44,255 nt of DNA from a virus (Duplodnaviria; Heunggongvirae; Uroviricota; Caudoviricetes). Shown here piece after piece: positions 5,259 through 36,087 of the stretch. The DNA lies in IMG/VR virus record IMGVR_UViG_2874920711_000009, positions 1 through 44,255 of that record. One strand, written 5' to 3'. A program made the translations under genes and the position numbers. Below the pieces are notes generated by a model. It made no database searches. It worked only from the letters and a program-made list of their open reading frames with translations, and was not told where the DNA came from. Every line of letters begins with the position of its first letter. The stretch's first letter is position 1.

Positions 5259-5414
5259 CTGTTCCCTCCCTGTGCGGCATGGTCGCATGTGCGTGCGGAG
5301 GGGGTTACTGCTTTTTGTTGTCGCCGTGGCGGGAGAACGGCGCAGGGGTGAGATTACGCGCGTGGTGGGTGATGATTGTTGCCGAATCATTTAACGGATA
5401 CAAGGGCTGAAGCT

Positions 5415-16742: not shown

Positions 16743-16745
16743 GAT

Positions 16746-17095
16746 TTACTCCCTCAGCGTGATGGTTAACTCAACATTCTGCATGGTCTGCATGACAGTG
16801 CCCGACAGCGTCACCCCGGCGCGGCCTCCGCTTTCCAGACAACGTCGATGGCATCCAGGGCAATGCGGGGTTCCCATCGTGTCAGCGCAATCACGGCAGC
16901 ACTCATGCATTGCAGACGCGTGGTGTTATTCATGGGTTCGTCAATCAAATCAGGCACAAGGCTGCCATATTCCCGTCGCATAACCCGGCTTGCCAGCGGG
17001 GTGGTCAGGATGTCCCTGACTGACTGTTTCAGGTGCTCCATATCGTTCAGGTTTCCCGTTCCGTCCGGGTTCATTCCTGTGTAGCGGGTTGTCAC
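16746..17095 (-). pseudogene. W: baseplate wedge protein gpW (gp25-like), frame break near 16811
   Basis: 94-aa ORF 16811..17095; C-terminus continues in +1 frame to the TAA just before the J start; break at a CCGGGG run. Confidence 0.7.
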
Positions 17096-17673: not shown

Positions 17674-18314
17674 CGTACAGCCTCCGCAATCCGGCCCAGC
17701 ACCGTGTTATAAATCAGGCGTTCATCTGCCTGACTGATGCCCAGCAGCTCACGTACCGGGTAATCGGTGAAAATGCCCGGCGCAACCTGATCGCGCTCAC
17801 CGAACTGATGAACGCGTGCAATACGTGCAGCCACGCCGCTGTAACCCACCGTCACACCGGAAGCATCCGCACGGGCTTTCAGGTAGCGGGTGGTGCGCAG
17901 TTTTACGAACATGGGGACGCGCTTTGTGCTGTCCTGGTTGATGCGCCGGGTGCGTATTTCCAGAAAACGGTCGATGTCATCCCGGTAAAACGTGCGGATA
18001 TTGTTTTTATCCTCATCCCACCCGGTAATGGTTCGCCCGTATTTCCCCGTGTCGTGATGCCAGTTTTTCAGCGTGCGTGATTCGTTATTCCAGATAAAGC
18101 GAATGCGTTCCTGTATCCGGGTTACGCGGCGTCTGCGTGGTGTCCACGCGGTCCCGTCCGGCGCTTTCTGTGACCGGATACGCGCCTGCTGGGCGCGGCG
18201 TAAATCCTGTGCCAGCTTTCTGGCGATGTTATTGATGGCCTGCTGATTCAGGCTGTCGCGGATGGCCTCAAAGGTTTCATCCACGCGGGTGAATGCCTTA
18301 TCCATCGCTTTCAC
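17670..18314 (-). CDS. S: tail completion protein gpS
   Basis: 214-aa ORF overlapping V start and R stop as in P2 operon. Confidence 0.8.
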   Translation of the reverse strand: MKAMDKAFTRVDETFEAIRDSLNQQAINNIARKLAQDLRRAQQARIRSQKAPDGTAWTPRRRRVTRIQERIRFIWNNESRTLKNWHHDTGKYGRTITGWDEDKNNIRTFYRDDIDRFLEIRTRRINQDSTKRVPMFVKLRTTRYLKARADASGVTVGYSGVAARIARVHQFGERDQVAPGIFTDYPVRELLGISQADERLIYNTVLGRIAEAVR

Positions 18315-18765
18315 CCCACGTCACATCCTGGAATACATGCGACCAGTCGCCTTCGGAAGATGGCAGGCGGGGTTTTGGCTCCGGCAGGTGTTCTGCCTGC
18401 GGTGTGCCCTGATTGCTGCGCGTGATGCGAACGCGTTCCCGCAGGGGGAGCGTAAACAGGAGATCGGCGCTGTCATCGTCATTGATAACGGCGGAGAATT
18501 TGATGTCCTGATTACGCTCAGGGTTGAGCAACAACTGTGGCTGATTTTCGGATAACCACGCCAGCAGCGGCAGCGTGAGGTCATCCAGCTCCCCGGCGTA
18601 ATCCATGACAAACATCACCATCTGATAGCGGTAAACAAACGATGGGGTTTCTCCTGTCGTTTCAATGTTACCGCTCTCCACGAAAATGGTGAATTTTTCC
18701 GGGTTGGCCTGACACCATCGGCATGAACGGGTCATGGCTTCACGCAGGGAATCAGTTTTCAGCAT
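18298..18765 (-). CDS. R: tail completion protein gpR
   Basis: 155-aa ORF upstream of S, P2 order. Confidence 0.8.
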   Translation of the reverse strand: MLKTDSLREAMTRSCRWCQANPEKFTIFVESGNIETTGETPSFVYRYQMVMFVMDYAGELDDLTLPLLAWLSENQPQLLLNPERNQDIKFSAVINDDDSADLLFTLPLRERVRITRSNQGTPQAEHLPEPKPRLPSSEGDWSHVFQDVTWGESDG

Positions 18766-19042
18766 GGTTGTTGTCCTCGTTGTTCAGTCGTTGCAGCCTG
18801 CGCTGTTCCAGTAATTCAATGGCCCGTTTATCCGTGTTACAGGTTTCCAGTGCATCCAGAAGGCGGTCGCCCCATATACCGAGATTTCCCCATGTGGGAG
18901 TGTCAGGGAAGGGGGGAGGCGTTACCGGTATGGTCAGCGTCTGCGGTATAAGCCGGACTGACGGCGCTGGCCGTGGCGCGTTCTGCGTGCCTGCGCAACC
19001 TGTCAGTAAAACGAGCGTCAGGCAAAGCGTGGGCGCATTCAT
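18752..19042 (-). CDS. lysC: o-spanin lipoprotein (LysC/Rz1-like)
   Basis: MNAPTLCLTLVLLTGCAG lipobox, Pro-rich; embedded in and extending past the LysB region in another frame. Confidence 0.6.
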   Translation of the reverse strand: MNAPTLCLTLVLLTGCAGTQNAPRPAPSVRLIPQTLTIPVTPPPFPDTPTWGNLGIWGDRLLDALETCNTDKRAIELLEQRRLQRLNNEDNNHAEN

Positions 19043-19309
19043 CTTTTGCAATATCGTTGCGTAGCTGTTCACGTCTGGCCTCTCCGTCCTGATTTCGTTG
19101 TTGATTTTCCACGCGGAGTTGCGCCAGCACCTGCTGCATATCCTGTACCCGGTGCTGATGATATTCAGGGTGTCGACGGTGCTTTTCAGTGCGCTGGCCT
19201 GCGCTTCGTTTCTGGCGTTCTCCCGGCCCAGCGACCACGACAGACGCATGGATGTTCCCCATGCGGCAATCAGAAGGAAAGCGACGCCCAGCGTGGGCCA
19301 GAGCTTCAT
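18903..19309 (-). pseudogene. lysB: i-spanin (LysB/Rz-like), frame break as given
   Basis: N-terminal TM segment MKLWPTLGVAFLLIAAWG in one frame; coiled-coil remainder (QHRVQDMQQVLAQLRVENQQRNQ...) in ORF 18903..19262. Confidence 0.5.
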
Positions 19310-19698
19310 GCCGGATAGGCTCCGTGTGGTAACTGAAAATGCGGTCCGTCTTTCAGGGTCTTCCAGTCGCCGCCCCATTCCACCGGAATATTCAGTTCCC
19401 GGCTGGCCTGTCTGAATGCTGCTGCGATTTTTTCGTACAGCGGCCATTCCCATGACACCTGGCTACCGATATAAGCCACAACATCCACGGCATGCCCCGT
19501 AAGGTGGCGGCTGTTCATGGTCTGGCTCTTACCCGTGGCCACAAGTTGCTTCTGGCGGTAACGGCTGCGCAACCCTTCGGTGATACCAAAATCCACTTCC
19601 GAGATTTCCAGTGCCCGTCGGGTCACTTTCACCAGATCAGGATTTACGCCCTGCAAATTCTTTTCGCTCCGGCTGCTGAATTTAAATGTGTTGCTCAT
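19306..19698 (-). CDS. endolysin, peptidase M15-type (Zn-dependent peptidoglycan peptidase)
   Basis: HLTGHAVD ... WGGDW ... DGPHFQL motifs typical of M15 endolysins. Confidence 0.8.
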   Translation of the reverse strand: MSNTFKFSSRSEKNLQGVNPDLVKVTRRALEISEVDFGITEGLRSRYRQKQLVATGKSQTMNSRHLTGHAVDVVAYIGSQVSWEWPLYEKIAAAFRQASRELNIPVEWGGDWKTLKDGPHFQLPHGAYPA

Positions 19699-19711
19699 TC
19701 GTCCTTCTCCT

Positions 19712-20017
19712 TCACCCTGCGATTAAAGGCCGCAATAACCTTGTCGTGTGCTTTCTCTGCCCCATAAAACCGATTGATGCGCCGATAAACGTCACGGCAT
19801 CTTCAGGAAAACCGAAGAAGCGCAACGACCCGGCCACGGCCATGGCAAGAACGCCGCACGCCAGCGATCCCGTTACGGTCTGAACCAGTGTTCGTCCGTC
19901 ATAAAGACTCATCAGCGCGGAAATGCTGACCGCCGCGCCTACTGCATACACCGTTGGCAGGTGGTCAAAGAGCCATGCAATAACCTGCTCTGTGATCCCT
20001 GTTTGAATGGTGCTCAC
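19712..20017 (-). CDS. holin
   Basis: 101-aa ORF with two hydrophobic helices directly upstream of the endolysin. Confidence 0.55.
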   Translation of the reverse strand: MSTIQTGITEQVIAWLFDHLPTVYAVGAAVSISALMSLYDGRTLVQTVTGSLACGVLAMAVAGSLRFFGFPEDAVTFIGASIGFMGQRKHTTRLLRPLIAG

Positions 20018-20038
20018 TGCTACTCCCCCACAACTGAA

Positions 20039-20251
20039 TCATTTCTCGTTTCTTCTTCTCCGGCTCCGGCATCTCCACTTCCTGCCCGGCGTCCAGAAAT
20101 ACCTGCTGACAGAGTCCGGGTTGGCATCCAGCACCTTTTCGGTGACGCCCTGCGTCGTGCCGTAGTACCGGAAACAGAGCGAATCCACGGTGTCGCCTTC
20201 CAGTGCCTTAACTTTCATCAGCACAACTCCGCAAAGATTCGCGGGCGGCAC
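20039..20251 (-). CDS. X: tail protein gpX (LysM-like); C-terminus looks frame-shifted
   Basis: MKVKALEGDTVDSLCFRYYGTTQGVTEKVLDANP matches gpX; tail ...RKWRCRSRRRRNEK looks out of frame. Confidence 0.7.
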   Translation of the reverse strand: MPPANLCGVVLMKVKALEGDTVDSLCFRYYGTTQGVTEKVLDANPDSVSRYFWTPGRKWRCRSRRRRNEK

Positions 20252-20721
20252 AGAATGTCAGAGATGGCCCAGCTCACATCGCGCCACAAATCCGATGGCT
20301 GTATATCCAGTGCGTCCGCCCGGCGGTCGCCCTTGTCCGTTGTGTCCGCATCGCGGTAACGCTCCAGTATCAGGGCGCGTGTGGCGGTATAAACAGCATT
20401 GCGCCAGTGCCAGAGATTGACGCTTTCTCCGTTAATTACGGGTGCCGGAACATCGGCCAGCGTCTGATGGCCAGCCGCCTGCTGTTCCTGCTGCCACGCT
20501 TCCAGCTCGCGGGTAACGTGTGCCACGGCCCCGGTGGCGGTATGCAGCAGGCGGGAGGTGGTCACACGGCCCGGCAGTCGTATCGCCAGACGCAGCTCAC
20601 GCAGCACAATATCCGGCCAGAATGCGCCCGCTGAAATACGGGTATCACCATCATCGGTATCGGTGATGTCGTTCTCTGCGGGTCCGGGGTTGGTTCTGGC
20701 AACCATACTCATGGGGTTCAC
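20218..20721 (-). CDS. L: head completion protein gpL
   Basis: 167-aa ORF between M and X in P2 order. Confidence 0.8.
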   Translation of the reverse strand: MNPMSMVARTNPGPAENDITDTDDGDTRISAGAFWPDIVLRELRLAIRLPGRVTTSRLLHTATGAVAHVTRELEAWQQEQQAAGHQTLADVPAPVINGESVNLWHWRNAVYTATRALILERYRDADTTDKGDRRADALDIQPSDLWRDVSWAISDILCRPRIFAELC

Positions 20722-20813
20722 TCCTGAAAAAATCGGGCGGTGGGTGCGCGGTGTAAACGGTCACGGAGTCAAACCGGAACACCGCGCACGCCGCCCGCTG
20801 ACGGGGTCAGTCG

Positions 20814-21614
20814 TTAACCGCGCTTCGCCTTCTGCGTCGCGGTGGTTTTTCGTGTTGCAGGCTTCCGCGTTGTCTTTTTACTTTTGCTGCTTTCGTCCTG
20901 CGTCTGCGGTGTGCTGGCATCTTCTGGTGCGGCTGCAGAATCAGCTTTTTTCAGGGCGCGGGAAAGGGTTGCAATCTCGCGTTTCACACCTGCGTTCGGG
21001 TTCAGGTGCATTGCTTCGCGCAGCAGCTTCAGTGACAGGGCCATGCTGTCCGCATCGCTCAGGCCACGGCGGGCAAAGGCGCACGCCTTGCATAATTTGG
21101 CGCGCACTTCGTCCGGCATGTCCTGGTCGGTGACAATCTCCCGGAGGGTATCCAGTGGTTCGATAAAGGCGGACAAATCCGCGTCGGCATCCGTCCCGGC
21201 CTGCGTCAGTACCGGGTTGCAGATTTCTTCGGTCAGCACTGTGGCAGCAGTACGGCCAAAGTTATCCGGCATGATGAGGTTGTGACGGACCACATACGCG
21301 CCAATACGCAGCGCAAGCGGAAGATCGCCGCAGTCAATCGCCCACACCATCAGCATGGCAATCACTTCGTCCTGCTGCCCACCGTCAGCCTCCAGCGTTC
21401 CCTCAATCCAGCCGGAAAAGTCCGGCAACAACTCTTTTTTGATGGCGGCTTTCGCGCTTCTGGCCTGTACGCCCTTAAGCCGGGCCTGTGCCAGACGCAG
21501 ACGATACAGCACCTCTTCATGCGCGGTACGCGCGGCATGGTCCACGCCTTCATTCGCCCGGCCTGCGCGCTGTGCCATCACGTTCTGCCAGTGTTGCTGT
21601 GCAGGAGTAATCAT
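20814..21614 (-). CDS. M: terminase small/endonuclease subunit gpM
   Basis: 266-aa ORF with basic C-terminal tail, between N and L. Confidence 0.8.
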   Translation of the reverse strand: MITPAQQHWQNVMAQRAGRANEGVDHAARTAHEEVLYRLRLAQARLKGVQARSAKAAIKKELLPDFSGWIEGTLEADGGQQDEVIAMLMVWAIDCGDLPLALRIGAYVVRHNLIMPDNFGRTAATVLTEEICNPVLTQAGTDADADLSAFIEPLDTLREIVTDQDMPDEVRAKLCKACAFARRGLSDADSMALSLKLLREAMHLNPNAGVKREIATLSRALKKADSAAAPEDASTPQTQDESSKSKKTTRKPATRKTTATQKAKRG

Positions 21615-21659
21615 TTTTTCTCTCCGTTACAGGCGGGCATGATGCCCGCCGTGAGTTGA

Positions 21660-22711
21660 TTAGCTGTCGGCGAACTTCAGGCCAGTGACCATCGCGTACT
21701 TGCCATAGTCTTCAACGACATAAGCGTCATTGATGGACTGGTAGGTGGCGATGCGGTTGTATTCCGGTTCGTCTTTCATCAGACGACGCATTGAACCTTT
21801 CTGCCAGTAAATCGACAGGTTGTTGAACGAGGTGATCAGCATCGTTGAATCCGGGAAGAACGGCGCAAGGAACACGCCCAGCCCGCCAATGGTGCGCGAT
21901 GACAGAATGAGCTGCCCGGCGAGTAATTCCGCATTAGGATTCTGGCCGCTGATGCTGTTCAGCACGGACAGACGCAGCGAGTTAAACAGGTTGCGCCCCA
22001 TAATCACCACGAGGTCGTCAGCTTCCTTGTGCCATTCATCCAGCAGGGATGAGCGCGCGTCCTGTACCAGAGCATCAGCGTTCGCATACTTACCGCGTGC
22101 GCCACGGTGTTGTCCATGTTACGGGAGGTCAGCGTCACGTCATTCATAACGCGTTCGCTGGCGTCGGTTCTGATGTGCTCCAGCCACCCCACGTTAACGT
22201 CCTGAAGCAACTTGTTGGTGCTGAAGTTGGACTCATCCGCGTGAGACGTGCCGTTGAAACCGATCATGATGCGGTCAAGTGCCACCTGTCGGGCAATCTG
22301 TGCGCTGATGCGGGACTGAAAATCAGGGTGTGCCGCCCAGGCATCAAGCTGCGGATATGAAATAAACGTGTCGTAGTTCACCTGTTCGCACTGGTATTTG
22401 CGGTTTTTCAGATCAACCACGTTATTCGGGTTACGGCGTTTTGTGCCGTCATAACTGGTATTCGTGCGCGCAATCGGCCCGGTGGTATCCAGGAGGATTT
22501 TTTCGCCTTTCTGGTCGGTCACGCCGATCACGTTAATTCTTTTTGTAAATTCGGTGCTTTCCTTTGAGGCGTTTTCAAAACGCTGCTGTACCGAGGGTTC
22601 CACGGTAAATCGCGATACCAGTGCGGAAACCGGGATATTGTTAAGCGACGCCTGCTGCGCCATATAGCAACCCAGCTTGTTGCGGGTAATATCTGACATC
22701 ACCAGATTCAT
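21660..22711 (-). pseudogene. N: major capsid protein gpN, frame break near 22005
   Basis: N-terminal 235-aa fragment 22004..22711 and C-terminal 116-aa fragment 21660..22010 both resemble P2 gpN (e.g. LQDVNVGWL, YVVEDY). Confidence 0.85.
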
Positions 22712-22734
22712 AAAAAATTTGCTCCTTTGTCTTA

Positions 22735-23569
22735 TCAGAAGTCAGCCAGCTGGTCGGAGGCAGCGCCCGTTGCGGTGAACCGGTTCTGCGGATCGCCGTC
22801 CTGCGTGCGCAGTTTTTCCTTCAGTGCTGCCAGCTCTGTGGTCAGTAAAGTGATTTTCTGGCTGTCCTGTTGATGGCGGGTTTCCAGCACATTAAAACGG
22901 TCGATAATGTCGGCCTGTGACGTTGCGACACCTTCCACCGCTTCCTGAATACGGGAGAAACTGGCGTCATCCGCTTTGCGTCCACGGCCAATAATCCCAT
23001 AACGCGGTTAAACCACTGGGTGCCTTCTTCCTGACGTTGTTCGGTGAGTTCGATAAGTTCTGACTCCATAGCGGCGGTAAACATCGCTACGTCTCCCTGC
23101 TGACAGTTGAATGTCATCAGTTGCATACGTTGTTGTGCCGCAAAGGCCAGACGTTCCGTGCCCAGGCTGGCAGGGGTGTCGGTCATTGCCAGCCCGCGCA
23201 GGTAAGGGCCTCCCGTGATGGTTGACTGTGGTTCCAGCTCAATACTGGAGTAAATTTTTTTACCATCGTTAAGCAGGGACATCATGCGAGCGGTCGGCTC
23301 AATTTCGGCATACAGTGCCGTGCGACCTGCCAGCGGGCCATCGGTTATGTCTTCGGTGCTCAACCCCACAACATCGCCCATAGCGGAAAACTCGCTGCCG
23401 GGAGTGGTGACAGGATGTGCTCAATATTCACACGTGCACCATAAACGGACGGGTTATAACTGGTGGCGGCAGCTTTCAGCATGTCGCCGTTGATTTCGCG
23501 CCCGTCTGCCGTTACACCGGAGACAGCCACGCGAAACTTTTTGCGGGATGTCTTTTTTTCATTAGCCAT
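22735..23569 (-). pseudogene. O: capsid scaffolding protein gpO, two frame breaks
   Basis: Three consecutive fragments 23360..23569, 22842..23381, 22735..22938 in different frames. Confidence 0.8.
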
Positions 23570-23720
23570 AGTTTTTGCCCTCTGACTGGTTCTTCAGTCA
23601 TGATGGCAAAGCGTAACAGGCTGATACAAAGGGCTTTTGTTGTAAGAAAACGGCCAGAACAGGGGTTAAGGAGAACAGTTTCGCGCGCGGGTAATCTTCC
23701 TGTAATTACTCAGGGGAGCA

Positions 23721-25471
23721 ATGATTCAGGACGCTTTTGTGCGCCAGCGTGCGCGGCAACTTTACTGGCAGGGTTATCCGCCCGCAGAGATATCACGTCT
23801 GATGGGAATAAACCCGAACACGATTTATGCGTGGAAAAAACGCGACCAGTGGGATGAAACACCACCCGTGCAGCGTGTTACGCAGTCCATCGATGCGCGC
23901 CTCATCCAGCTTACTGAAAAACAGAATAAAACAGGCGGTGACTTTAAGGAAATAGACCTGCTGACCCGGCAGCTTAAAAAGCTGCATGATGGCCAGCCGG
24001 ATGTGATGGCCGCAGGAAAGAAAGGCCGGGCGAAAAAACTCAAAAATCATTTCACGCCGGAACAGATTGCCGCACTGCGGGAAAAAATCATCAGCAGGCT
24101 GGAGTGGCATCAGCGGGCTGGTTTGACTCCCTGACACTTTGCAGGGAAGCCGGGATACGTAACAGGATGATCCTGAAATCCCGACAGATTGGGGCGACCT
24201 GGTATTTTGCACAGGAAGCTCTGCTGACGGCGCTGCGTGACAATGTGGCGCAACCTTACCAGCGTAACCAGATTTTTTTGTCTGCGTCGCGTCGTCAGGC
24301 GTTCCAGTTTAAAAGCATTATTCAGAAGGCCGCGGCTGAAGTTGATGTGGAGCTGAAAGGGGGCGATAAAATCATCCTCTCCAACGGCGCAGAGCTGCAT
24401 TTTCTCGGCACTTCTGCTGCGTCGGCACAGTCCTATACGGGCAATTTTTATTTTGATGAATTTTTCTGGGTCAGTCGCTTTGCTGAACTGCGCAAGGTGG
24501 CTGGCGCTATGGCAACCCTCAGCGGACTGCGGCGCACCTACTTCTCCACGCCATCCACCGAAACGCACGAGGCATACGCCTACTGGAACGACGACCGCTG
24601 GAACGAGAAAAAGGCCTCGCATAAACGCCAGCGTTTTTCTGTGGACTGGAAAACGCTGCATAACGGGCTTATCTGCCCTGACCGGACGTGGCGGCAAATT
24701 GTCACGCTGGAAGATGTGGTTAATCACGGCTGGAAACACACCGATATTGACGAAATCCGTGATGAAAACACCGAAGACGAGTTCCTCAATCTCTATATGT
24801 GTGAGTTTGTTCGCGAAGGGGAATCGGCATTTAACCTGAATATCCTGATTGGCTGCAGTGTTGACGGATACGACGACTGGAAAGACTGGAAACCTTTTGC
24901 TCCCCGCCCGATGGGGAATCGTCCGGTATGGATTGGGTATGACGCAAACGGCAGCAGTGGCAACGGCGACAGCGGCGCTGTGTCCGTGGTGGTTCCTCCG
25001 GCTGTTCCTGGTGGCCGTTTTCGAACGGTGGAGACGCGACGCGTTCAGGGGCTGGAGTTTGAAGAACAGGCCAGAGTCATTGAAGAGTTCACGTATCGCT
25101 ACAACGTGGAACACATCGGCATTGATGTGACGGGCGGGAACGGGGAGGCTGTTTATCAGATAGTGAAACGGTTTTTCCCTGCTGCTATTCCGTACACCTT
25201 CACGCTGTCATCAAAACGGTCGCTGGTACTGAAAATGCTGCAAATAATGCGTGCCGGGCGGTGGGAATACGATCGCGCCGAACGCGAGCTGGTCGCGGCC
25301 TTTAACGCCGTGCGTAAGGTGAAAACACCGGGCGGCTTTATCACTTACGAAACGGACCGCGCGAGGGGGATCAGCCACGGCGACCTTGCGTGGGCAACCA
25401 TGCTTGCTGTCATTAACGAACCGATTGGCGGCGAAGGAGAAAACGAGCGTTTCACGGTTATGGAGTTCTGA
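23721..25471 (+). pseudogene. P: terminase large (ATPase) subunit gpP, frame break near 24110
   Basis: Fragments 23721..24134 and 24104..25471; divergent from O across a 150-bp promoter region. Confidence 0.85.
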
Positions 25472-26513
25472 TGAGCAGAAAAAATAAAAAAGTGCGCATG
25501 AGTTCACGCATTGATCTCGCTGATGCGCTCAGGAAAGAATCATCGCTCAGTGCATTCACATTTGATGGTCCTTATCGCCTGACCGGGCATGACCTGCTGG
25601 ACAATATGTACTGTGCTGATAACGGACGGTGGTATGAAACCCCGGTGGACTGGTACGGTCTGGCAAGAGCAGCCCGGCAAACGTCCTGGCATCAGTCTGC
25701 GCTTTACTTTAAGCGCAATGTATTACTCGGTTGCTACATCCCGCACCCGCTGCTTTCCCGGCAGGATTTCTCGGCGCTGGCGCTGGACTGGTTTGTGTTC
25801 GGTAACGCATTCCTTGAGCTTAGAAGCAATATGCTCGGCGAACCGCTTAAATTACGGCACGCACTGGCGAAATACATGCGACGCGGAAGCGATCTTGAAT
25901 CATGGTGGTATGTGCAGGATGGCAAGGACGCGTTCCAGTTTCGCCCTGGCAAAGTGTGCCACCTGATGAATCCGGATATTAACCAGGAAATCTACGGCAT
26001 GCCGGAATATCTTGGCGCATTACTCTCGGCCAGCCTTTCTCATTCGGCGGACATGTTCAGAAAACTGTACTACGACAACGGATCCCACGCCGGGTGCATC
26101 ATCTACATCGGTGCAGCGCAGGTAAACCGCGAAAGCATGGACTCCCTGAAAGAAACGTTACAGGGCGCGCGTGGTGGTGCGTTTAAAAACGTGCTCATCC
26201 ATGCGCCCAACGGGGCAAAGAAGGTGTGCAAATTTTGCCGTTCCAGCAGATCACTGCAAAGGATGAGTTCATGAATGTTAAGGCGGCATCCCGTGATGAT
26301 GTGCTGGCTGCGCACCGCGTTCCGCCGCAACTGATGGGGGCGATGCCGGGCGAAAAAAGTGCGTTTGGTGATGTGGAGAAGGCCGCGCGGGTTTACGCAA
26401 TTAACGAGCTGATGCCCGTCATGGAGGCCATGAAGCACATCAATGACTGGCTTGGCGAAGAGGTGATCCGCTTTAACCCTTACGCACTGCTAGATACCCA
26501 GCCCACATCCTGA
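25471..26513 (+). pseudogene. Q: portal protein gpQ, frame break near 26230..26270
   Basis: Fragments 25471..26274 and 26226..26513; start overlaps the P stop. Confidence 0.85.
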
Positions 26514-26934
26514 CGCGCTTCGCTTGTCTGCTGCTTCGCCGGGCATAAAAAATTTATGCCCCGACTCTCCAGCTCCTGTATCAATCAGATAATTTCACGA
26601 CGCTTTTCTGCTTATTGTCATCATCGGCGGTCAGACTCTTACGCAATCCCACCGCGTTGACTGCATGTTCTCGCCGCCTCAGTGCGATTTTGACGGCCTT
26701 ATCTGCCACCCATCAAATCAAAAGCCCTCACGTCTTTTTCACGCTCAGCGTAAGAAATATAGCCATTCTGTTGTGTCTCTGCGACATCGTTCAGGGAATG
26801 CTATTTACCCCTGAAACGCGGGCTGTTCCCCCGTCACCTGCGCGCAGAAAAAGCGCGTTTTTTTGTGCACGCACGGATCCTTGACGGATCCAGCCGCCAC
26901 GCGGGCTGGAAGGGTAAAAAGTCGTTCAAAAAAA

Positions 26935-26961
26935 TTGTGCAAATTTGTGCACTATTGTGCA
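26935..26961. promoter_or_regulatory. three TTGTGCA direct repeats at exact 10-bp spacing (a fourth at 26863)
   Basis: ATTGTGCAAAT / TTTGTGCACT / ATTGTGCATTA; candidate protein-binding iterons next to the cos-proximal end. Confidence 0.3.
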
Positions 26962-26968
26962 TTAAAAT

Positions 26969-26991
26969 AAACGCCCTGGAAGAGGGCGTTT
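26969..26991 (-). terminator. hairpin terminator for the minus-strand cargo operon
   Basis: AAACGCCCT-GGAAG-AGGGCGTTT, followed on the minus strand by ATTTTAAT. Confidence 0.45.
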
Positions 26992-27001
26992 GGGCTCATT
27001 T

Positions 27002-27262
27002 CTATAGCTTTGATGCAGGCTGGGCTAGATGCAAGGGTTGGACATACCAGCCTTTTGATAACCAACTCTCTGCAACCTCTTTACTCCTTGTTATTGCTGG
27101 TATTCCGATGCCGTTATTTACATGCATCCATGCTACTGGCTCTGCTTCCAGTGATACCAGTGCAATTTCATAAGCACGGCGCTCAATATTGTCTCGAACG
27201 TCCAGGCTGCCTATGCGCTCTTTGATTTCTTTAATCAGTTCTTTGTCGGTGAAAGTTGTCAT
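27002..27262 (-). CDS. hypothetical protein (86 aa)
   Basis: ORF track; last gene of tightly packed minus-strand operon. Confidence 0.5.
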   Translation of the reverse strand: MTTFTDKELIKEIKERIGSLDVRDNIERRAYEIALVSLEAEPVAWMHVNNGIGIPAITRSKEVAESWLSKGWYVQPLHLAQPASKL

Positions 27263-27272
27263 GTGTTAGTCC

Positions 27273-27536
27273 TTATCCTGCTGTGCTTTCAACTGATGAG
27301 GGGAACAAAATCTTTTCATCAAACCCTGCATTCATATCATGAACAGCAACACACCAATCCATTGACGAACGATTATCAAGAGCCTCCATGATTTCATCCA
27401 TGTGGCGCAGGTCATACAGGTAAATGCTTTTATCGCCAATGGTGTAAAAACCAATTTTTTTCGGTGATGGGCAGCGATCAAGAACGTCCTGTAATTCATT
27501 CAACCATGCCCGTTCTTTTTTTGTTAAAGTTGCCAT
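27273..27536 (-). CDS. hypothetical protein (87 aa)
   Basis: ORF track; AAGGAG RBS; start 1 nt after preceding stop. Confidence 0.5.
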   Translation of the reverse strand: MATLTKKERAWLNELQDVLDRCPSPKKIGFYTIGDKSIYLYDLRHMDEIMEALDNRSSMDWCVAVHDMNAGFDEKILFPSSVESTAG

Positions 27537-27537
27537 A

Positions 27538-27954
27538 TCACTCTCCTTTGATGCGAATGCCAGTGGTACTCATTCTCCTGATTTCCCAGAGCACACGAGG
27601 AACACCACCGTTTCCGACCGGATCGCGTTTACTCCGCAGGGCGACGCTTGATTCCGCCCAGCTTTTTCTTGGAGGAAGCTCTTTCACACGAACAAAACCA
27701 GCTGCGCGAAGAGATGCTCCTGATTCATCTGCCCGGGTGTACGTAATACAACGTTGATAACCCATAGCTTTTGCTGCCCGCCAGACAGCACCATAAAGCG
27801 CGCTGTTAGCGTTGCGTTCTCCTGTGGTACATGTGCGATTTACTTCAAGCGTTAATCCATCGTCCAAATGTCGTGCAACAGGTCGACCGGCTGTCGCCAC
27901 ACCTATCAATTCTCCGGCATCATTTCTCAGACCAATGCTGAATTTATGCCCCAC
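27538..27954 (-). CDS. hypothetical protein, possible acetyltransferase-like fold; 5' end uncertain
   Basis: GTG start without RBS; a short upstream ORF with AAGGAG RBS (from about 28024) in another frame suggests a frame break at a CCCCGG run. Confidence 0.45.
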   Translation of the reverse strand: MGHKFSIGLRNDAGELIGVATAGRPVARHLDDGLTLEVNRTCTTGERNANSALYGAVWRAAKAMGYQRCITYTRADESGASLRAAGFVRVKELPPRKSWAESSVALRSKRDPVGNGGVPRVLWEIRRMSTTGIRIKGE

Positions 27955-28030
27955 CGGGGTTTATTGTGTCGGTGATGTCTGGATATAAATGCCTTCGCAA
28001 CACGAAGAGTAACCGGTGAAATCTGCACTC

Positions 28031-28345
28031 TCACTCTCCTTTGATACCAATGTTTACAGTCTGGCAAGCTTCTCTGAGCACCCAGTCAACAGCGTCTTTC
28101 CATGCTCCGGTTTCAGTTGGCGGATTCTCACGCTTTACCAGTTCATAGAAACGTACTGCTCTAACCAGTCCATCTGACGGTTTTGCCTGTAGTGCAGCCT
28201 GAGCTATACGGTATGCCTGGAGCATACGGGCGTCGTTGATATCCATTCCGAACGGAATTTCTGATGATCGTGATTCTGCATCTTCAAGCCTGGCAATTTC
28301 TTTACGTAAAAAGTATTTCAACTCTTGTTTTTGTTTTCTGTTCAT
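28031..28345 (-). CDS. hypothetical protein (104 aa)
   Basis: ORF track; start overlaps stop of upstream gene. Confidence 0.5.
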
Positions 28346-28710
28346 GTGTTTTTTCCCTTTTTGTCTGCCACTTCTCTCCTGATAATTTCATTGCACAAAT
28401 CCACGCACTCATTGCAGATGTAAACAGACGGTCCAGCAATCACCTTTGTGACTTCGTACTGGGATTTATTGCAGAAGCTGCAATAAATCGTTTCCTCGCC
28501 TGAAGCCCATGTTTTGCTGGTTTTGCCAGACATCAGTTGTTTGAGGTCTTTTTCACGACGAAGAACTATCTGGCCACATTCAGCTATTTTTTGGATGTTG
28601 ACATTTTCTTCTTTCGCCAGCGCTTCCATCCGCTCAATCAGTCGCTGCGCTTTTTCTCTGTCAATGTGTTGCATTGTGTCCCCTTGTTTATGTTCCCGGG
28701 TTAAAGTCAT
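28342..28710 (-). CDS. small protein with C-terminal ClpX-type C4 zinc-binding domain
   Basis: [41 protein letters not shown] closely matches the ClpX N-terminal zinc-binding motif (CSFCGK...ICDEC). Confidence 0.6.
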
Positions 28711-28736
28711 CAGGGCGGATGCGCCCTGATGTTGTG

Positions 28737-29048
28737 TTATTCGGGAAATAACGCCCGGATATTTCCGGCCATCTGACTGGTTATCTGTGCGGTTGATACT
28801 GGCTGTGATGCGGGGCGTTCTGTCCTGGTTTGTGTCACTGATAACGCCTCATCATCAGCCCATGCAGCCAGTCGGTAAGCCTCTGCCGGATTCATTTTCA
28901 GAAGTGCCAGCCCGGCCAGAAAAGCCACGCGTTGGCCGCTTTTGCGGGCTTCTGGTGTAAGGCTGTCCAGCCAGGCGCATGCTTCGCCTTCGTTCTTGAC
29001 GGCGGCGGGCTTCAGATAGAAACTTATTCGTCTGGTTGGTGTCGTCAT
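28737..29048 (-). CDS. ParR-like partition adaptor
   Basis: Directly downstream of parM homologue; [14 protein letters not shown]...[13 protein letters not shown] resembles ParR; AGGAG RBS before ATG 29048. Confidence 0.5.
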
Positions 29049-29052
29049 TGAT

Positions 29053-30035
29053 TTACTCCTTGTCCATTGCGTACAGCCCATTAACCAGAGCAAACTGTGG
29101 CACCCCGTCCGCGATGAAAGTCGCATTAACTCCGCAGGCTTCGCGGATAGCGGGTGCCACAATCTCCGCTCCTCCACCTACAACCATCACCCGCCCGTAA
29201 CCCGAAAAACCCGCCAGCGCGCGGATCACGCGTTGTTTCAGTGTTTCTTCCTTTTCACGAATAACCGCCATCAGGCTGGCGTAATGTGCGTCATTGTGGA
29301 TGTGCTGGCGCAGCCAGGCTTCATCATGGCGATGTTCGATAATGGTATTGGCGATGTGGTGACTGGTACGCATACCGTTAGTGGCCATCACCGACAGTAC
29401 GGCATCGGCCATCAGGGAAACGCCTACGTGTGGATCGCAAAATACCTGGCTGATACCTGCCAACTGCCCCTGAACCTTTGCCACATCCAGCGTGGTTCCG
29501 CCCAAATCCACAATCAGCAGGGATTCAAACGGACTCATGTCAGCCAGTGTTTTAAAGCCAGTTGGAATGGATTCAGGCATAACCCGTACGTTACGGATAG
29601 TGAATGCTTCGCCGTTCTGGTACTCCACCGGGCGCATAACGTTCGCTTTTTTGCGGTTGATGTTGGCCATGTCCGGCTGTGCGTTTGTGTCGAAATACTC
29701 GCTCAGTGGCAGGGTGACAACCACATCCACCTCCTGTGGCGTGATGCCTGATTTGACCAGCGCGTGATGCCTGATTTGACCAGCGCGTGATGAATGGCAA
29801 TGACATTCACATCGCTGTACTGGTATTGCGTGTCGGTCGTCTGGACAAAGCGATCGCTGACCGGATCAAAACCATAGCGCACGCCATCAAGCATGTAGTT
29901 CGCGGGCTGCGTGCCACCGAACGGCGCAGACCATTCCGACTTGAAGCTGTTCGGGCTGATGGCGTTGCGGCGTTCGCCGTTCTCAGTCCATGCCAGCTTG
30001 ATGTTGGTGGAGCCGTCGTCGATACAAATTTTCAT
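29053..30035 (-). pseudogene. ParM/StbA-family actin-like ATPase, disrupted by a 23-bp tandem duplication
   Basis: MKICIDDGSTNIKLAW...SPNSFK.EW...YSDVNVIAIHHAL and C-terminal LLIVDLGGTTLD, VVGGGAE match ParM; removing one copy of 29741..29763 restores a 319-codon ORF. Confidence 0.75.
29741..29786. repeat. perfect 23-bp tandem duplication (GTGATGCCTGATTTGACCAGCGC x2)
   Basis: Read directly; flanked by GCGTGATG microhomology. Confidence 0.85.
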
Positions 30036-30178
30036 GTCGCTTTTCCTTATGTTGATTAATTAATCGTTTACGGGATTCTGAAATCCCGTTTTTTCCGTAA
30101 GCGCCCCATCAGCGACGTCTTGTGAAAATTGTCCTGTCTGGCAACAATCGCGCCCATCTATATTGATGGACACGAACG

Positions 30179-30781
30179 ATGAATTCCCAGACAACAAAAG
30201 ATATTCCCTGCTTCCGTTCTTATTTGCCTGATGCCCTGCGTTTAAGATTTGAAGATAAACTGACCATCCGGGCCATCGCTCAGCGTCTGGGTCTCAGTCA
30301 TTCCACAATACATACGCTTTTTCAGCGATTTCTTGCATCCGGTATCGCATGGCCATTGCCCGATTCAGTTTCATTCGCTCAACTTGACGCCATCCTTTAT
30401 GCCAACAGAAAGAAGGAATTAACAGAGCCTCAAATCAGAGAAGGCTCATGGCGAAAAGAACGGCGAACCAGCTATAGCCGTGAATTTAAGGTCCGTCTGG
30501 CTAAGCAGGCGTTACAGCCTGGGGCTGTTGTTGCCCGGATCGCCAGAGAACACGATATCAATGATAACCTGCTGTTTAAATGGAAAAGCCAGTACGAGGA
30601 CGGCTTACTGAGCGATGATGACATACAGGAATGCATGCCTGTCCCGGTGGCACTGACTGATACGCCGGAGCCGACCAGACCAGTTACAAATCCCTTCTGG
30701 CGTAACAAGCATGATGAGCGCCCTGAGGGGCTCCCGGAAACGTCCCACGGTGCGAGCTGCATCTTAAATCAGGTGTGGTAA
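30179..30781 (+). CDS. IS66-family TnpA-like protein (HTH)
   Basis: ORF track; 3' end differs from copy B by a G4/G5 homopolymer length. Confidence 0.7.
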   Translation: MNSQTTKDIPCFRSYLPDALRLRFEDKLTIRAIAQRLGLSHSTIHTLFQRFLASGIAWPLPDSVSFAQLDAILYANRKKELTEPQIREGSWRKERRTSYSREFKVRLAKQALQPGAVVARIAREHDINDNLLFKWKSQYEDGLLSDDDIQECMPVPVALTDTPEPTRPVTNPFWRNKHDERPEGLPETSHGASCILNQVW

Positions 30782-30847
30782 AACTGTTTGACCCTCTCAC
30801 TCCGGAACTGTTACGGGCGCTAATCCGCGAAATGAAAGGGGTATCCG

Positions 30848-31195
30848 ATGATAACGCTGCCGACCGGTACCAGAATCTGGATCATCGCTGGCATCACAGA
30901 TATGCGTTGTGGCTTCAATGGCCTGGCTTCGAAGGTGCAGAACACGCTGAAAGATGACCCGTTCTCCGGGCATATCTTCGTCTTCCGGGGCCGCAGTGGC
31001 AAAATGGTGAAAATACTGTGGGCCGATCGTGACGGGTTATGCCTGTTCGCCAAACGCCTGGAACGGGGCCGCTTCGTCTGGCCGGTGACCCGGGAAGGGA
31101 AAGTGCACCTGACGCCAGCTCAGTTATCCATGCTACTGGAGGGGATCGCGTGGCAACATCCCAAACGGACAGAACGGCCTGGCATCCGGATATAA
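30848..31195 (+). CDS. IS66-family TnpB
   Basis: 115-aa ORF typical of IS66 orf2. Confidence 0.8.
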   Translation: MITLPTGTRIWIIAGITDMRCGFNGLASKVQNTLKDDPFSGHIFVFRGRSGKMVKILWADRDGLCLFAKRLERGRFVWPVTREGKVHLTPAQLSMLLEGIAWQHPKRTERPGIRI

Positions 31196-31214
31196 CCCGT
31201 GATAAAACAAGGGA

Positions 31215-32770
31215 ATGAACAATGAACTCCCCGATGATATTGAGCTGCTTAAAGCCATGTTGCGTAAGCAACAGAGTCGGCTTCGACAGTATGCCTGTCA
31301 GGTCGCGGGCTATGAGCAGGAAATTGAACGGCTGAAAGCGCAACTCGACAGGTTGCGTCGTATGTTGTTCGGCCAGAGTTCAGAGAAAAAGCGTCATAAG
31401 CTTGAAAATCAGATCCGACAGGCAGAAAAACGACTGTCGGAACTGGAAAACCGGCTGAACACAGCCAGAAATCTTCTGGAAGATGCATCGTCAGTCACAG
31501 ATTCACCTGACACCAGTCCCCCGTCAGAAAACCCGATCGCCAGTAAGCCTGAATCCCCGGGAGACACATCGCCTTCTGCCTGCTGAAACCAGTTGCCCGG
31601 CCTGTGGAGGTGTTCTGAAAGAAATGGGGAAACAATCTCAGAGCAACTGGATATCATTAATACCGCCTTTAAAGTTATCGAAACCATACGTCCCAAACTG
31701 GCCTGTAGCCGGTGTGATGTCATCGTTCAGGCACCACTTCCCCCTAAACCGATCGAACGCGGTTATGCCAGTGCAGGGTTACTTGCACGGATCCTGGTCA
31801 GCAAATATATGGAACATATCCCTTTATATCGCCAGTCAGAAATATACGCGCGACAGGGCGTGGAGCTGAGCCGTAATACCATGGTGCGCTGGGTATCAGA
31901 AATGGCAGACAAACTCCGTCCTCTGTATATAGCGCTGAATGACTATGTTCTGGAGGCAGGAAAGGTGCACGCAGATGACACTCCGGTGAAAGTACTGGCC
32001 CGGGGAACGGAAAGACGAAAACGGGTCGTCTGTGGGTATACGTCAGGGATGATCGTAATGCGGGTTCATCCCTGCCGGCAGCCGTCTGGTTCGCGTATTC
32101 GGCAGATCGCAAAGGAGAACATCCGCAGCTCCACCTGGCAAAGTATCAGGGCGTACTGCAGGCTGATGCCTATGCAGGTTATAACGTACTGTACGAAACG
32201 GGCCGGGTGAAGGAAGCCGGGTGCCTGGCCCACGCCCGCCGAAAAATCCATGACGAGGATGTGCGCCGTCCGACAGAAATGACTCAGGAAGCGCTCAGAC
32301 GGATAGCAGAGTTATACGACATAGAAGCGGAGATACGTGGCAGTCCGGCAGAGGAACGGCTTGCAGTCAGAAAAGCCAGAAGCGTCCAGTTGATGCAGTC
32401 GTTGTACGACTGGATACAGTTGCAGAGGAAAACGCTGTCGAAATATGCGGAGATGGCGAAGGCGTTCGACTATATCCTGAATCACTGGAATGCGCTGAAC
32501 GAGTTCTGTCGTGACGGCTGGGTGGAAATAGACAACAACATCGGTGAAAACGCGTTACGATCGGTGGCGGTTGGAAGAAAAAATTATCTCTTTTTCGGCT
32601 CAGACAAGGGAGGAGAAAGTGCGGCGATCATCTACAGTCTGCTGGTCACCTGCAAACAGAACGAAGTGGAGCCGGAGGACTGGTTGCGCGAAGTGATCGA
32701 GAAGCTCAATGACTGGCCGTCGAACCAAGTGCATGAACTGCTGCCCTGGAACTTCTCGTCTGTAAAATAA
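31215..32770 (+). pseudogene. IS66-family transposase TnpC, frame breaks at homopolymer runs
   Basis: Fragments 31215..31586, 31593..32210, 32207..32770; copy B has the corresponding 504-aa ORF intact. Confidence 0.8.
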
Positions 32771-32798
32771 TCCTTACGCTACGTACTTCTCGGGGCGC

Positions 32799-35090
32799 TT
32801 ACTTATCAGGCAAAGGCCGCTGCTGTTTGCGGCTCTGTGTCCAGCTCTGCATTTCATCACTGCTGTTTTTTGCCTGTTTGTCACGAAGCGAACGCATCAG
32901 CGCCCGGCGTTCGTGCCGTTTCAGTGAGCGCATCCATTCGTTCACTTCAACGCCGTCAGGGAGCTGCGGCCACGGTGCTGGCCGTTCTTTCGGCTGTTCT
33001 GTCCCGTTGTTGTCCGTTTCCTGTACACGGGGACAGTTATTGCCACGAGTCCAAGGGGCGGCAGGGCCGCCCTGAAGGTCAAAACCATTTTCGCGGGTGC
33101 TGTCCTCCGCTTCCGGTTTACGTCTTACCAGCTTCCAGTTATCCGGATGCGTGCACACACGGGAGGATTCCCCGATGAATGGCGACCAGATCCCGTAAAT
33201 CTGTACACTCTGTTCGCCGTAATCGTTCAGCTCATCTGCGAGGTCGTAGGCTGTGCGAATCAGGTAGTCCTTGCGCGGAACAAGTACGCCACCCTGTTTT
33301 TCAATGTAGGTGGCAAAACACCCGGCATCAGCGGCAGCAAGAACCGCATCCATTGCGTCATCCTTCAGCCGTTGCGGGCCTTCTGGGTTGCGTGCTATCT
33401 GGCTGGCAAGGCGGCGGAGTTCACGCCACACCTGACGGGAGGGGATGCCAAAGAACTGGAACTGGCGGACCCGGTGAAGGCGCGCCCAGCCGATGGCGCG
33501 CTCCACGCTCTCGGCCATTGATTTACCTGTTTCGTGGTCAACGCGTGGCTTGCCCGTTTTCGGGTCGATGCCATCCACGGCGCGGCTGTCCAGGTTCTTT
33601 CCGATGTAGGTGGCGATGTAGCTGGTTGGCGTGCCTTTTGAGCCGTCGACGTACTCCGCCTTAAAGCGTGGGGTAATATCATCACCCAGCTCGTGACGAT
33701 CTTCCTGAATGGCAATATCGCGGGTGTGGGACACAATGGTGTCGATTTCTTCCGGATGAGCAAAGACCATCATATGCCAGTGCACGGTGCCGTCATGGTG
33801 AGGCTCCACCGTGCGGATGCCATACCAGCGCAGGCCGTCGCGGTTCAGTTTCTTGCGGACCGCTGCAAAAAACGTGTTAACCAGGTAATCGCTGGAGTCG
33901 CGCATGGTGGCCCCGTTCCATTTGGGATTCGGATGACTGTTCTCTGTTGTGGCGTGGTATTTTGACGGGCAGGTGACAGTCAGAAACACCGCTTTGTCGC
34001 CACGGGCTTCGGCCAGAAGTTCCAGCCCCTTCATGGTGGCCATCATTTCTGCCTTACGGTGAACCGGGTTACTTACTCCCGCGTAATACACTGTCTCGAG
34101 ATCAATCGTGAACCCGTCTTCGTTTTCCAGCATGAAACTTTTCAGGAAATCGCGTGTTTTCTCGCGCTGTGCGCGAAACTCGCTTAACGCGTCCTGGCTC
34201 AGATAGGGTGATGTTTTTCTGGAAACCAGACAGGCGGCGCGGAGTTGTTCTTCTCTCCACTCGCAACGTAACAGCCACAGTTTGCGTTTCCACCATTCCG
34301 CACAGGTCAGGCGAAGGATTGCGCCCGGCAGCAGCTCCGTGTCCGGTTCGTTCCTCCGGTCTTTGTCTGTTGTCAGTGCGTCATAATGTGGAGGCATGGC
34401 GTGCAGGTGTAACGCCATGCGGGCCAGCATCTGATACGCCTTCAGCGTTACATCCATGGTCAGTTCGCCATCGGTCGCGCCAAAGCCATCGCAGAGTTTT
34501 TCGAAGGTGCTGCTGAACATCGCCGCCGTCATGGTGGCCAGCGTCTGTATCTGGTGTTTGTTGAGCTGCGGCAGGTAAAGCAAATCGTCCAGGCGTTCGC
34601 GTCCGGCAAGGGAGCGATAACCCGGTGTCAGCCAGTGTCCGTCAGTGCGATCCAGACGTTCGAATATTTTGCGCAGGGTTCCGCGTGCATAGCGTTCCGC
34701 CTGCCAGCTCTTTTTGCCTTTCCGGCGATCGGCTTCCTGTTTTTTGCGCAGGAAGGAGAGGTGGCGAATAAGCGGATCGCGCAGATAGGACGGCAGCAGG
34801 TGCAGCGAGGCCATGGCTTCATCCACCGCGCCGCGTGCCTGTTTTCTGGCGTCTCCTGCCAGTGTGATGGTTTTGTCCTGTTTTTCCTGTGCGTCCAGGC
34901 TTTTATTAATCAGGTTGCCCAGCGGCGTGGCGGAGAACGCCGCATTAGCCATTTCCTGGCGGCGCTCGTTCTCTACCCGGTAGGCATCCAGCCAGGAGGA
35001 AAGCACGGATTCAGGAGCGGGGATCCCCGTTCCTTCACGCCCCACTGCGTGGCGCGGTTGTTGCCAGTCCCTGATGTACTCTGCCGTCAT
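32799..35090 (-). CDS. A: rolling-circle replication initiation protein gpA
   Basis: 763-aa ORF of gpA size and character; stop codon TAA is formed by the IS66 terminus (G-TAA-GCG). Confidence 0.85.
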   Translation of the reverse strand: MTAEYIRDWQQPRHAVGREGTGIPAPESVLSSWLDAYRVENERRQEMANAAFSATPLGNLINKSLDAQEKQDKTITLAGDARKQARGAVDEAMASLHLLPSYLRDPLIRHLSFLRKKQEADRRKGKKSWQAERYARGTLRKIFERLDRTDGHWLTPGYRSLAGRERLDDLLYLPQLNKHQIQTLATMTAAMFSSTFEKLCDGFGATDGELTMDVTLKAYQMLARMALHLHAMPPHYDALTTDKDRRNEPDTELLPGAILRLTCAEWWKRKLWLLRCEWREEQLRAACLVSRKTSPYLSQDALSEFRAQREKTRDFLKSFMLENEDGFTIDLETVYYAGVSNPVHRKAEMMATMKGLELLAEARGDKAVFLTVTCPSKYHATTENSHPNPKWNGATMRDSSDYLVNTFFAAVRKKLNRDGLRWYGIRTVEPHHDGTVHWHMMVFAHPEEIDTIVSHTRDIAIQEDRHELGDDITPRFKAEYVDGSKGTPTSYIATYIGKNLDSRAVDGIDPKTGKPRVDHETGKSMAESVERAIGWARLHRVRQFQFFGIPSRQVWRELRRLASQIARNPEGPQRLKDDAMDAVLAAADAGCFATYIEKQGGVLVPRKDYLIRTAYDLADELNDYGEQSVQIYGIWSPFIGESSRVCTHPDNWKLVRRKPEAEDSTRENGFDLQGGPAAPWTRGNNCPRVQETDNNGTEQPKERPAPWPQLPDGVEVNEWMRSLKRHERRALMRSLRDKQAKNSSDEMQSWTQSRKQQRPLPDK

Positions 35091-35765: not shown

Positions 35766-36087
35766 GGTGTGGCCCCTTGTGTAGTAAGTTGTGAAAACTC
35801 ACCATCCAGAGCTGCGAAACTGTGGGTGGCGAGACGTACGAGGTTCGCAGTACCGGCTACACAAGAACCCGGCCCGACCGAAGTCGGCCCCGTACGCCCC
35901 GCCATAATTCTGACGCGAAAAAAACGTAGCAATACAGTACGCACAAAAAAACCGCTGGCGCGGTTGTGCGCTTGTGTAGTCAGCAGGCTGCGAAACCCGG
36001 CACCCGTTTTGTGAGGTGCAGCGGAAATGTAACCTGACTGATTGCGGCATGGCAAGCGGTTTTTTTGTGTGTGCATGTTCTGGTTTC

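Follow-up and report, generated by a model that had tools for sequence, protein, structure and literature searches.

A stand-alone ClpX-type zinc-binding domain protein of P2-like prophages: a candidate mimic of the ClpX docking domain

A P88-like prophage (P2-family, Peduoviridae, Xuanwuvirus) encodes a 110-aa protein that joins a ClpX-type zinc-binding domain (ZBD) to a family-specific helical hairpin and that probably interferes with the choice of targets by the host protease ClpXP. The prophage was found in the window, i.e. the entire 44,255-nt stretch of viral DNA analysed here (IMG/VR record IMGVR_UViG_2874920711_000009). Observation of the domain as such is not new, as the protein has been named by PGAP, belongs to a PHROG and figures in a published hotspot table; full-text searches of the literature turned up no functional work on phage ZBDs that stand alone.

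Domain architecture and gene boundaries

An earlier note on this DNA had read the C-terminus of the protein as nearly the N-terminal C4 domain of ClpX, and this assignment held. The Pfam family PF06689 (zf-C4_ClpX) matched over profile positions 2–38 of 39 with 65.6 bits (E=3.7e-18; gathering cutoff, 27 bits), and a phmmer search of the PDB aligned all four cysteines with those of the E. coli ZBD structures 1OVX (E=2.4e-19) and 2DS5/6/8 (6.4e-19). Within the core YCSFC...IIRRE, 31 of 38 residues (82%) were identical to E. coli ClpX. Alignment to ClpX further showed the four zinc-ligand cysteines to be present in an intact CxxC-x18-CxxC arrangement, where Cys65, Cys68, Cys87 and Cys90 of the phage protein equal ClpX Cys14, 17, 36 and 39. 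In an AlphaFold2 (AF2) monomer prediction, computed from an 11-sequence family alignment, the ZBD part is modelled as a treble-clef fold that superimposes on the crystal structures 2DS5, 2DS6, 2DS7 and 2DS8—the last an XB-peptide complex—with rmsd values of 0.6–1.0 Å and target-normalised TM-scores of 0.88–0.92.

Positions invariant among 46 ClpX N-terminal fragments, a sample skewed to sequences having words in common with the query, were kept in the phage family except for L27V, G18N and E49R. Residues of the ZBD interface helix were conserved relative to ClpX, and the GPSVY segment was replaced by GDAVF, GPRVY or GPEVC in divergent family members. In so small a domain, much of the conservation could come from fold and dimer constraints alone; for the phage protein, we infer zinc binding, dimerisation, ligand binding and an effect on ClpXP. 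The description of the domain as a stand-alone copy was likewise borne out, since the AAA+ motor is absent: the ClpX equivalogs TIGR00382 and NF003745 matched at profile positions 3–52 only, scoring 49.7 and 47.7 bits relative to cutoffs of 370.75 and 359, respectively. Judged by its sequence, the 110-aa protein is not a ClpX unfoldase.

The ZBD is preceded by a hairpin of two helices and a flexible linker (Table 1). What had been described as a helical N-terminus of ~60 residues, unrelated to ClpX, is indeed helical and unrelated according to AF2 and homology searches, but comprises 48 helical residues followed by ~15 residues of linker. Mean pLDDT over the model was 78, dropping below 50 at linker residues 53–59, and the C-terminal helix of the ZBD extended to residue 109. 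Indels in the family alignments fell into linker residues 49–63, and the pTM of 0.38 for the 110-aa protein implies that the orientation of the two domains is not fixed. When the N-terminal 58 residues were searched with phmmer against 1.84 billion representatives, only family members and fragments were recovered; the hairpin structure had no match in the PDB or BFVD, and comparison with Pfam yielded sub-threshold noise only, with no recognisable DNA-binding or other motif. An XB-like motif (LKxh / LRVV) in the N-domain was considered for self- or ClpX binding and discarded, as the LKQL seen in the window is not kept by other family members.

Table 1. Coordinates of the ZBD gene, its parts and its neighbours in the window
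Feature	Position	Strand	Basis or remark
ZBD gene, encoding a 110-aa stand-alone ClpX-ZBD protein	28342..28674	-	ORF; 333-bp CDS annotation in relatives
ClpX-type C4 zinc-binding domain, residues 64–101	28372..28485	-	PF06689, 1OVX/2DS5, AF2
Flexible linker, residues 49–63, variable in length and sequence within the family	28486..28530	-	AF2, alignments
Two-helix hairpin, residues 6–48, family-specific	28531..28659	-	AF2 helices 6–22 and 27–48; pLDDT 72–91
Spurious 12-codon N-terminal extension; really 5′ leader with Shine-Dalgarno AAGGGG at ~28680–28685	28675..28710	-	
Perfect 10-bp GC-rich hairpin, CATCAGGGCG-n4-CGCCCTGATG	28708..28731	.	terminator-like scan, RNA fold
ParR-like partition protein gene (Plasmid_stab_B), directly upstream of the ZBD gene	28737..29048	-	
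ParM (StbA) gene, frameshifted in the window by a 23-bp insertion	29053..30035	-	
104-aa gene, phrog_660/26213	28031..28345	-	ATG overlapping the ZBD stop
Terminator-like hairpin with T-rich tail, 11 nt past the last same-strand gene	26969..26991	-	

The open reading frame reported in the earlier note, 28342–28710, is present on the minus strand (122 aa), but its start lies 36 nt too far upstream. The CDS annotated in P88, PhiR44_2, UTI89 and ~112 E. coli genomes (PGAP and phage records) measures 333 bp and encodes 110 aa. An alignment of 5′ regions revealed the leader of the gene to read AAGGGGGACACAATG in P88, PhiR44_2 and UTI89 and AAGGGGACACAATG in the window, the G-run of which is one base shorter, and it is through this missing G that the upstream ATG at 28710 comes into frame. 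That ATG is embedded in the 3′ arm of the 10-bp hairpin and lacks a Shine-Dalgarno sequence, which together with the missing leader base led to the rejection of the 122-aa frame as the ZBD gene. The ATG at 28674, in turn, is preceded by AAGGGG five bases upstream, so that this site, the hairpin-bound alternative and the leader of the relatives jointly define the gene as 28342–28674.

The hairpin lies within the 62 nt that separate the ZBD gene from the parR-like gene, is unchanged across four phages and has no T-run after it on the coding strand; the 91-nt stretch containing it folds with –28.7 kcal/mol (z=–5.9). Rfam gave no match at this hairpin, and a consensus scan found no promoter-like site adjoining the ZBD gene. 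At the opposite end, the stop codon of the ZBD gene overlaps the ATG of the next gene as ATGA.

Prophage setting, distribution and evolution

The window prophage is 96–97% identical to the UTI89 prophage adjoining dmsA, and its intact ZBD gene is 99% identical to that of UTI89. On the minus strand, gpA is followed by the genes for ParM (StbA) and the ParR-like protein, the 10-bp hairpin, the ZBD gene, the 104-aa gene (present downstream of the ZBD gene in part of the close relatives only), a Mom-like/XF1762 gene, two small hypothetical genes and the terminator-like hairpin, which is the likely end of the transcription unit holding the ZBD gene; the portal gene Q comes next, on the opposite strand. 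The Mom-like gene (27538–28029; phrog_1384, with a weak Pfam Mom match), two genes downstream of the ZBD gene, might bring a possible anti-restriction function into the cluster and is apparently frameshifted in the window by a G-run indel. The interval from gpA to gpQ is a hotspot of P2-like phages (Rousset et al. 2022, PMC9122126), and ‘StbA + Plasmid_stab_B + zf-C4_ClpX + hypothetical...’ is among the hotspot arrangements of Table S5A in that study, the main text of which does not mention ClpX and the reported defensive systems of which exclude the StbA/Plasmid_stab_B/zf-C4_ClpX arrangement.

Just upstream of parM, the window carries ISSfl3 (30094–32802; IS66-family, with tnpA, tnpB and transposase), which has taken the place of 553 bp of prophage DNA, the 3′ end of gpA (the last ~178 codons) among them, and has probably rendered the prophage replication-defective. 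ISSfl3, named after Shigella flexneri and with its closest copies found on E. coli plasmids and chromosomes, separates the ZBD cluster from the early operon in the window. Comparison of positions 16117–30093 with UTI89 revealed 21 indels, 19 of them single-base deletions that fell almost exclusively into G/C runs (e.g. at 20024, 23661, 26211, 27955 and 28679). The resulting apparent frameshifts affect the Mom-like gene and those for capsid, scaffold, terminase and portal; apart from the shifts, most of the products are 98–100% identical to their counterparts, although the N-terminal two-thirds of the scaffold are only about 70% identical to UTI89. Deletions in G/C runs are very likely sequencing or assembly errors (homopolymer under-calling) rather than pseudogenisation. 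The insertions of ISSfl3 and of 23 bp in parM appear to be real changes; the latter (~29739), flanked by repeated GCGTGATG and absent from UTI89, looks like a genuine mutation, unlike the homopolymer indels.

Further Rfam matches on the minus strand of the early prophage region comprised a C4 antisense RNA (35822–35909, 83 bits) and the Hfq-binding RNA isrK (35945–36019, 64 bits), resembling the C4 antirepressor control element of P1/P7 type. An IS009 match (191 bits) at 11803–12001 lies outside the examined part of the prophage.

The full-length protein matched phrog_6797 (function unknown; E=1.1e-58, profile positions 4–107 of 107). Near-identical chromosomal copies, in P2-like prophages, occurred in ~112 of 5,426 complete E. 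coli genomes (~2%). A further ~105 places were on plasmids, where diverged copies occur on roughly 100 records, and ~4% of genomes carry some form. Two-domain homologues of 48–51% identity were encoded by the phage-plasmid D6 and by elements of the p09EL50/CMS-2020a type (~108 kb). In 49 P2-family loci of IMG/VR, the ZBD gene was flanked by gpA and Q and shared the strand of gpA, a placement kept even where gpA and portal were only 30–70% identical to those of UTI89. Existing names of the protein are ‘ClpX C4-type zinc finger protein’ (RefSeq/PGAP) and ‘carboxylate-amine ligase’ (P88 gp19, D6 gp034 and many NCBI records); the latter is a legacy mis-annotation, as Pfam and NCBIfam show the ZBD only and no ATP-grasp or GCS2-type domain.

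ParM and ParR precede the ZBD gene in all close relatives and are absent from most divergent P2-like loci and from Salmonella and E. coli variants, with a ParR-like gene retained in L136 and L138. Downstream genes vary (the 104-aa phrog_660 gene, Mom-like genes and others), including HicAB-like modules in three loci. Across 14 divergent and 80 viral loci, no obligate phage partner gene was consistently linked; the sole recurring neighbour was hyp87, found inconsistently and in p09EL50. The lack of a consistently linked neighbour favours a host or core phage target over an adjacent partner, and the changing neighbours across divergent P2-like, D6 and p09EL50 backbones point to a host, not a phage, partner.

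Individual loci illustrated this mosaicism. L138 (IMGVR_UViG_2778261667_000012; ZBD gene at 5001–5354) encodes gpA and ParM 97–99% identical to those of UTI89, together with a ZBD protein of 36% and a ParR of 55% identity; the ZBD gene has thus undergone an allelic swap without a change of position, which suggests diversifying exchange. L139, L141 and L144 (~5405–6042), judged by eye from their sequences, have a Dam-like methyltransferase before the ZBD gene and a HicA/HicB-like pair after it. The 87-aa hypothetical phrog_1714 product encoded downstream of the ZBD gene in the window (27273–27536) is 96.6% identical to that of p09EL50 (L012, 4666–4929), compared with ~50% for the ZBD proteins, a contrast which indicates that unrelated phage backbones have recently exchanged neighbouring accessory genes in mosaic fashion.

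Over the ZBD codons, the gene shares 61% nucleotide identity with E. coli clpX, with saturated synonymous sites (pS=0.93) and a pN of 0.26. Saturation combined with retained protein identity argues for an old copy whose ClpX-like sequence has been held by selection, and the ZBD is thus best described, from codon-level comparison, as an old acquisition maintained as ClpX-like protein. Recent capture of host clpX was rejected, given these values and the absence of a blastn match to clpX. A word-11 blastn search of the ZBD gene against the 5,426 complete E. coli genomes matched 221, with a clpX annotation at the match in none of the 40 records listed; as clpX is present in every genome, the 221 matched genomes cannot include clpX matches. 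A scan of genome contigs yielded nothing but genuine clpX genes, which have the ICNECVDL motif in common. Within the family, both domains had dN/dS well below 1, the hairpin diverging faster than the ZBD, and the GC content of the gene was 43.5%, compared with 54% for the prophage.

Proposed docking-domain mimicry and its rivals

In ClpX, SspB, RssB and further clients that depend on the N-domain dock on the ZBD dimer. A nearly unaltered ZBD, devoid of the motor and flexibly linked to another conserved domain, is consistent with competition for such clients, and we put forward, as the best-supported of the readings, one that may well be true though we stop short of calling it probable, that the phage protein is a ZBD mimic competing for the ligands of the ClpX N-domain. 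A decoy or competitor, or else a new adaptor, had been proposed in the earlier note, and such functions seem plausible. The free phage ZBD would fold and dimerise like the N-domain of ClpX and compete with ClpX N-domains for proteins that dock there, among them the adaptors SspB (via its XB tail), RssB and UmuD, and N-domain-dependent substrates of the lambda-O or MuA type. The outcome would be a selective drop in adaptor- and N-domain-dependent degradation or remodelling by ClpXP, sparing pore-recognised substrates, while the helical hairpin might supply avidity (extra oligomerisation) or a second specificity.

Precedent comes from biochemistry with the E. coli domain. Isolated ZBD suffices for RssB binding and, supplied in trans at 5–20 µM to 0.6 µM ClpXP, inhibits RssB-dependent degradation of sigma-S in vitro (PMC7226468); XB-containing peptides and isolated ZBD interact with a KD of ~35–80 nM (PMC12373786). 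Inhibition by free ZBD in vitro took a ~10- to 30-fold molar excess (PMC7226468), meaning that a plain decoy must be abundant or gain avidity. The altered GPSVY segment of more divergent family members and the use of the ZBD as an add-on to DNA-binding proteins elsewhere also count against the mimic reading.

A broader claim, namely that temperate enterobacterial phages (P2-like prophages and phage-plasmids of the D6 or p09EL50 type) possess a natural trans-acting mimic that reprogrammes ClpXP substrate choice by adaptor titration or ClpX N-domain heterodimerisation, we regard as rather unlikely. In the titration version, the protein would be an Ira-like anti-adaptor stabilising sigma-S or SOS and replication factors; in the heterodimer version, a phage-specified hairpin would be plugged onto the ClpX machine. 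Among the proteins under ClpXP control are sigma-S, SOS components, antitoxins and several phage proteins of replication and transposition, and the ClpX N-domain mediates a large share of this control. If true, mimicry would let phages steer the proteolysis of their host, or keep out ClpX-dependent rivals such as Mu, by a new phage route that imitates the protease's own docking domain. It would equally offer a simple natural tool to switch off the adaptor-dependent branch of ClpXP alone and a ready-made reagent to dissect or engineer ClpXP targeting, and the ZBD gene may influence the stress physiology of clinical strains such as UTI89.

Rather than competing with ClpX, the phage ZBD could heterodimerise with the ZBD of a ClpX subunit and thereby attach the hairpin and its ligand to the ring, such that a specific host or phage protein would be brought in to be unfolded or degraded, or the entrance of the ring obstructed. 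In keeping with such tethering, the ZBD differs very little from ClpX in its C-terminal helix and hairpin residues, the layout, in which a flexible linker joins a cargo-type domain to a docking module, resembles adaptor logic as exemplified by SspB, and conservation of the N-domain under purifying selection argues for a specific role. However, subunit exchange may be inefficient if ClpX ZBD homodimers are as stable as has been reported, the 14 divergent and 80 viral loci disclosed no conserved phage partner gene, and no partner of the hairpin could be deduced from homology or structure searches, leaving this an unlikely explanation. The ZBD could alternatively be a generic, zinc-stabilised dimer interface, with a ClpX-independent activity—partition, replication or transcription control—residing in the N-terminal hairpin. 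Fusions of the ZBD to a ParB-like protein (L140), to HTH-like tails in actinobacterial proteins of 136 aa and to cyanobacterial sigma factors (PMC11119718) accord with this possibility, as does the invariable position after parM-parR in close relatives. Yet divergent P2-like phages and phage-plasmids have lost the parMR linkage, no motif, DNA-binding or other, could be recognised in the 48-residue hairpin, and 82% identity to the host ZBD despite saturated synonymous sites seems beyond the need of a dimer interface; a pure dimerisation role is conceivable, if doubtful.

Residence in a hotspot known for the defence genes old and tin, whose arrangements include ‘zf-C4_ClpX’ (Table S5A, PMC9122126), and the low GC content would suit an exclusion cargo, by which the prophage decoy would block superinfecting phages that need ClpX N-domain steps, e.g. 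remodelling of a Mu-type transpososome. Against this, a search of PADLOC-DB with the ZBD protein gave 0 defence families at E<=1, and the Mom-like neighbour represents counter-defence instead of defence. Moreover, the ZBD gene keeps its position even between P2-like backbones that have diverged widely, unlike typical hotspot cargo, and it runs in the direction of the early replication operon, with which it is apparently co-transcribed, in contrast to old and tin of P2, making exclusion cargo a quite improbable explanation. The many frameshifts and the IS insertion in the window prophage, finally, might suggest that the gene is what is left of the 5′ end of a captured clpX, without function and in decay. 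Most of these frameshifts look like homopolymer artefacts, however, while the ZBD gene is intact in the window and in >100 genomes, both domains evolve with a dN/dS well below 1, and DNA identity to clpX is down to 61% with synonymous sites saturated. Considered at the sequence level, the dead-remnant reading is effectively refuted, and we assign it a negligible probability.

Comparison with known systems

The candidate ZBD mimic shares with the ClpX N-domain the C4 treble clef (in the AF2 model, at an rmsd of 0.6–1.0 Å), the CxxC-x18-CxxC pattern, 82% core identity and nearly all ClpX-invariant residues. It differs from ClpX in having no AAA+ module, in the C-terminal rather than N-terminal position of the ZBD, behind a family-specific hairpin and linker, and in being encoded by temperate phages. 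Isolated ZBD was reportedly already used as a competitor in ClpXP assays by Wojtyra et al. in 2003. A functional parallel to the proposed decoy, recombinant isolated ZBD, is likewise a free ZBD dimer without the motor that titrates RssB and inhibits adaptor-dependent degradation (PMC7226468), but is a laboratory construct, whereas the phage protein occurs naturally, possesses one further conserved domain and has a putative activity.

The ZBD is a portable domain also outside ClpX, and other stand-alone or fused versions, 45–60% identical to that of the window, have other partner domains or none. The lambdoid Pseudomonas phage PP9W2 encodes a 65-aa ZBD-only protein (L013, 3495–3692), annotated ‘Clp protease’, in a nin-like region just downstream of replication genes, echoing the P2-like placement after a replication gene. 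A long viral protein (L140, IMGVR_UViG_3300047160_015042) combines a ParB-like N-terminus with a C-terminal ClpX-type ZBD (~3102–3227). In P0036, P0061, P0081, P0087 (136 aa), P0094 and P0104, an N-terminal ClpX-type ZBD is followed by a conserved HTH-like tail at the C-terminus (…GVSWARIGEALGMTRQSAWERFSGEE); this family looks actinobacterial, Streptosporangiaceae being the sole taxon named (for the related member P0094), and a 2.86-Mb contig carries one ZBD+HTH-like member. The zf-C4_ClpX domain has been described in cyanobacterial sigma factors as well (PMC11119718).

With the E. coli anti-adaptors IraD, IraM and IraP, which bind RssB and prevent delivery of sigma-S to ClpXP, the proposed decoy would have a functional analogy only, there being no kinship in sequence or fold; IraD and the ZBD have been proposed to share an overlapping site on RssB (PMC7226468). 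T5 Gp00X, a small phage protein, acts on ClpXP/RpoS (PMC11806420). In redirecting or inhibiting ATP-dependent proteolysis of the host, the proposed mimic would join Gp00X and the other small phage proteins of this kind. Known phage modulators of host AAA+ proteases include T4 PinA and T7 gp4.5 (acting on Lon), lambda RexB (ClpP-family) and the ClpC adaptor-like SPO1 Gp53. To our knowledge, none of these five proteins copies the docking domain of the protease itself or has homology to the phage ZBD, the feature by which the protein described here would stand apart.
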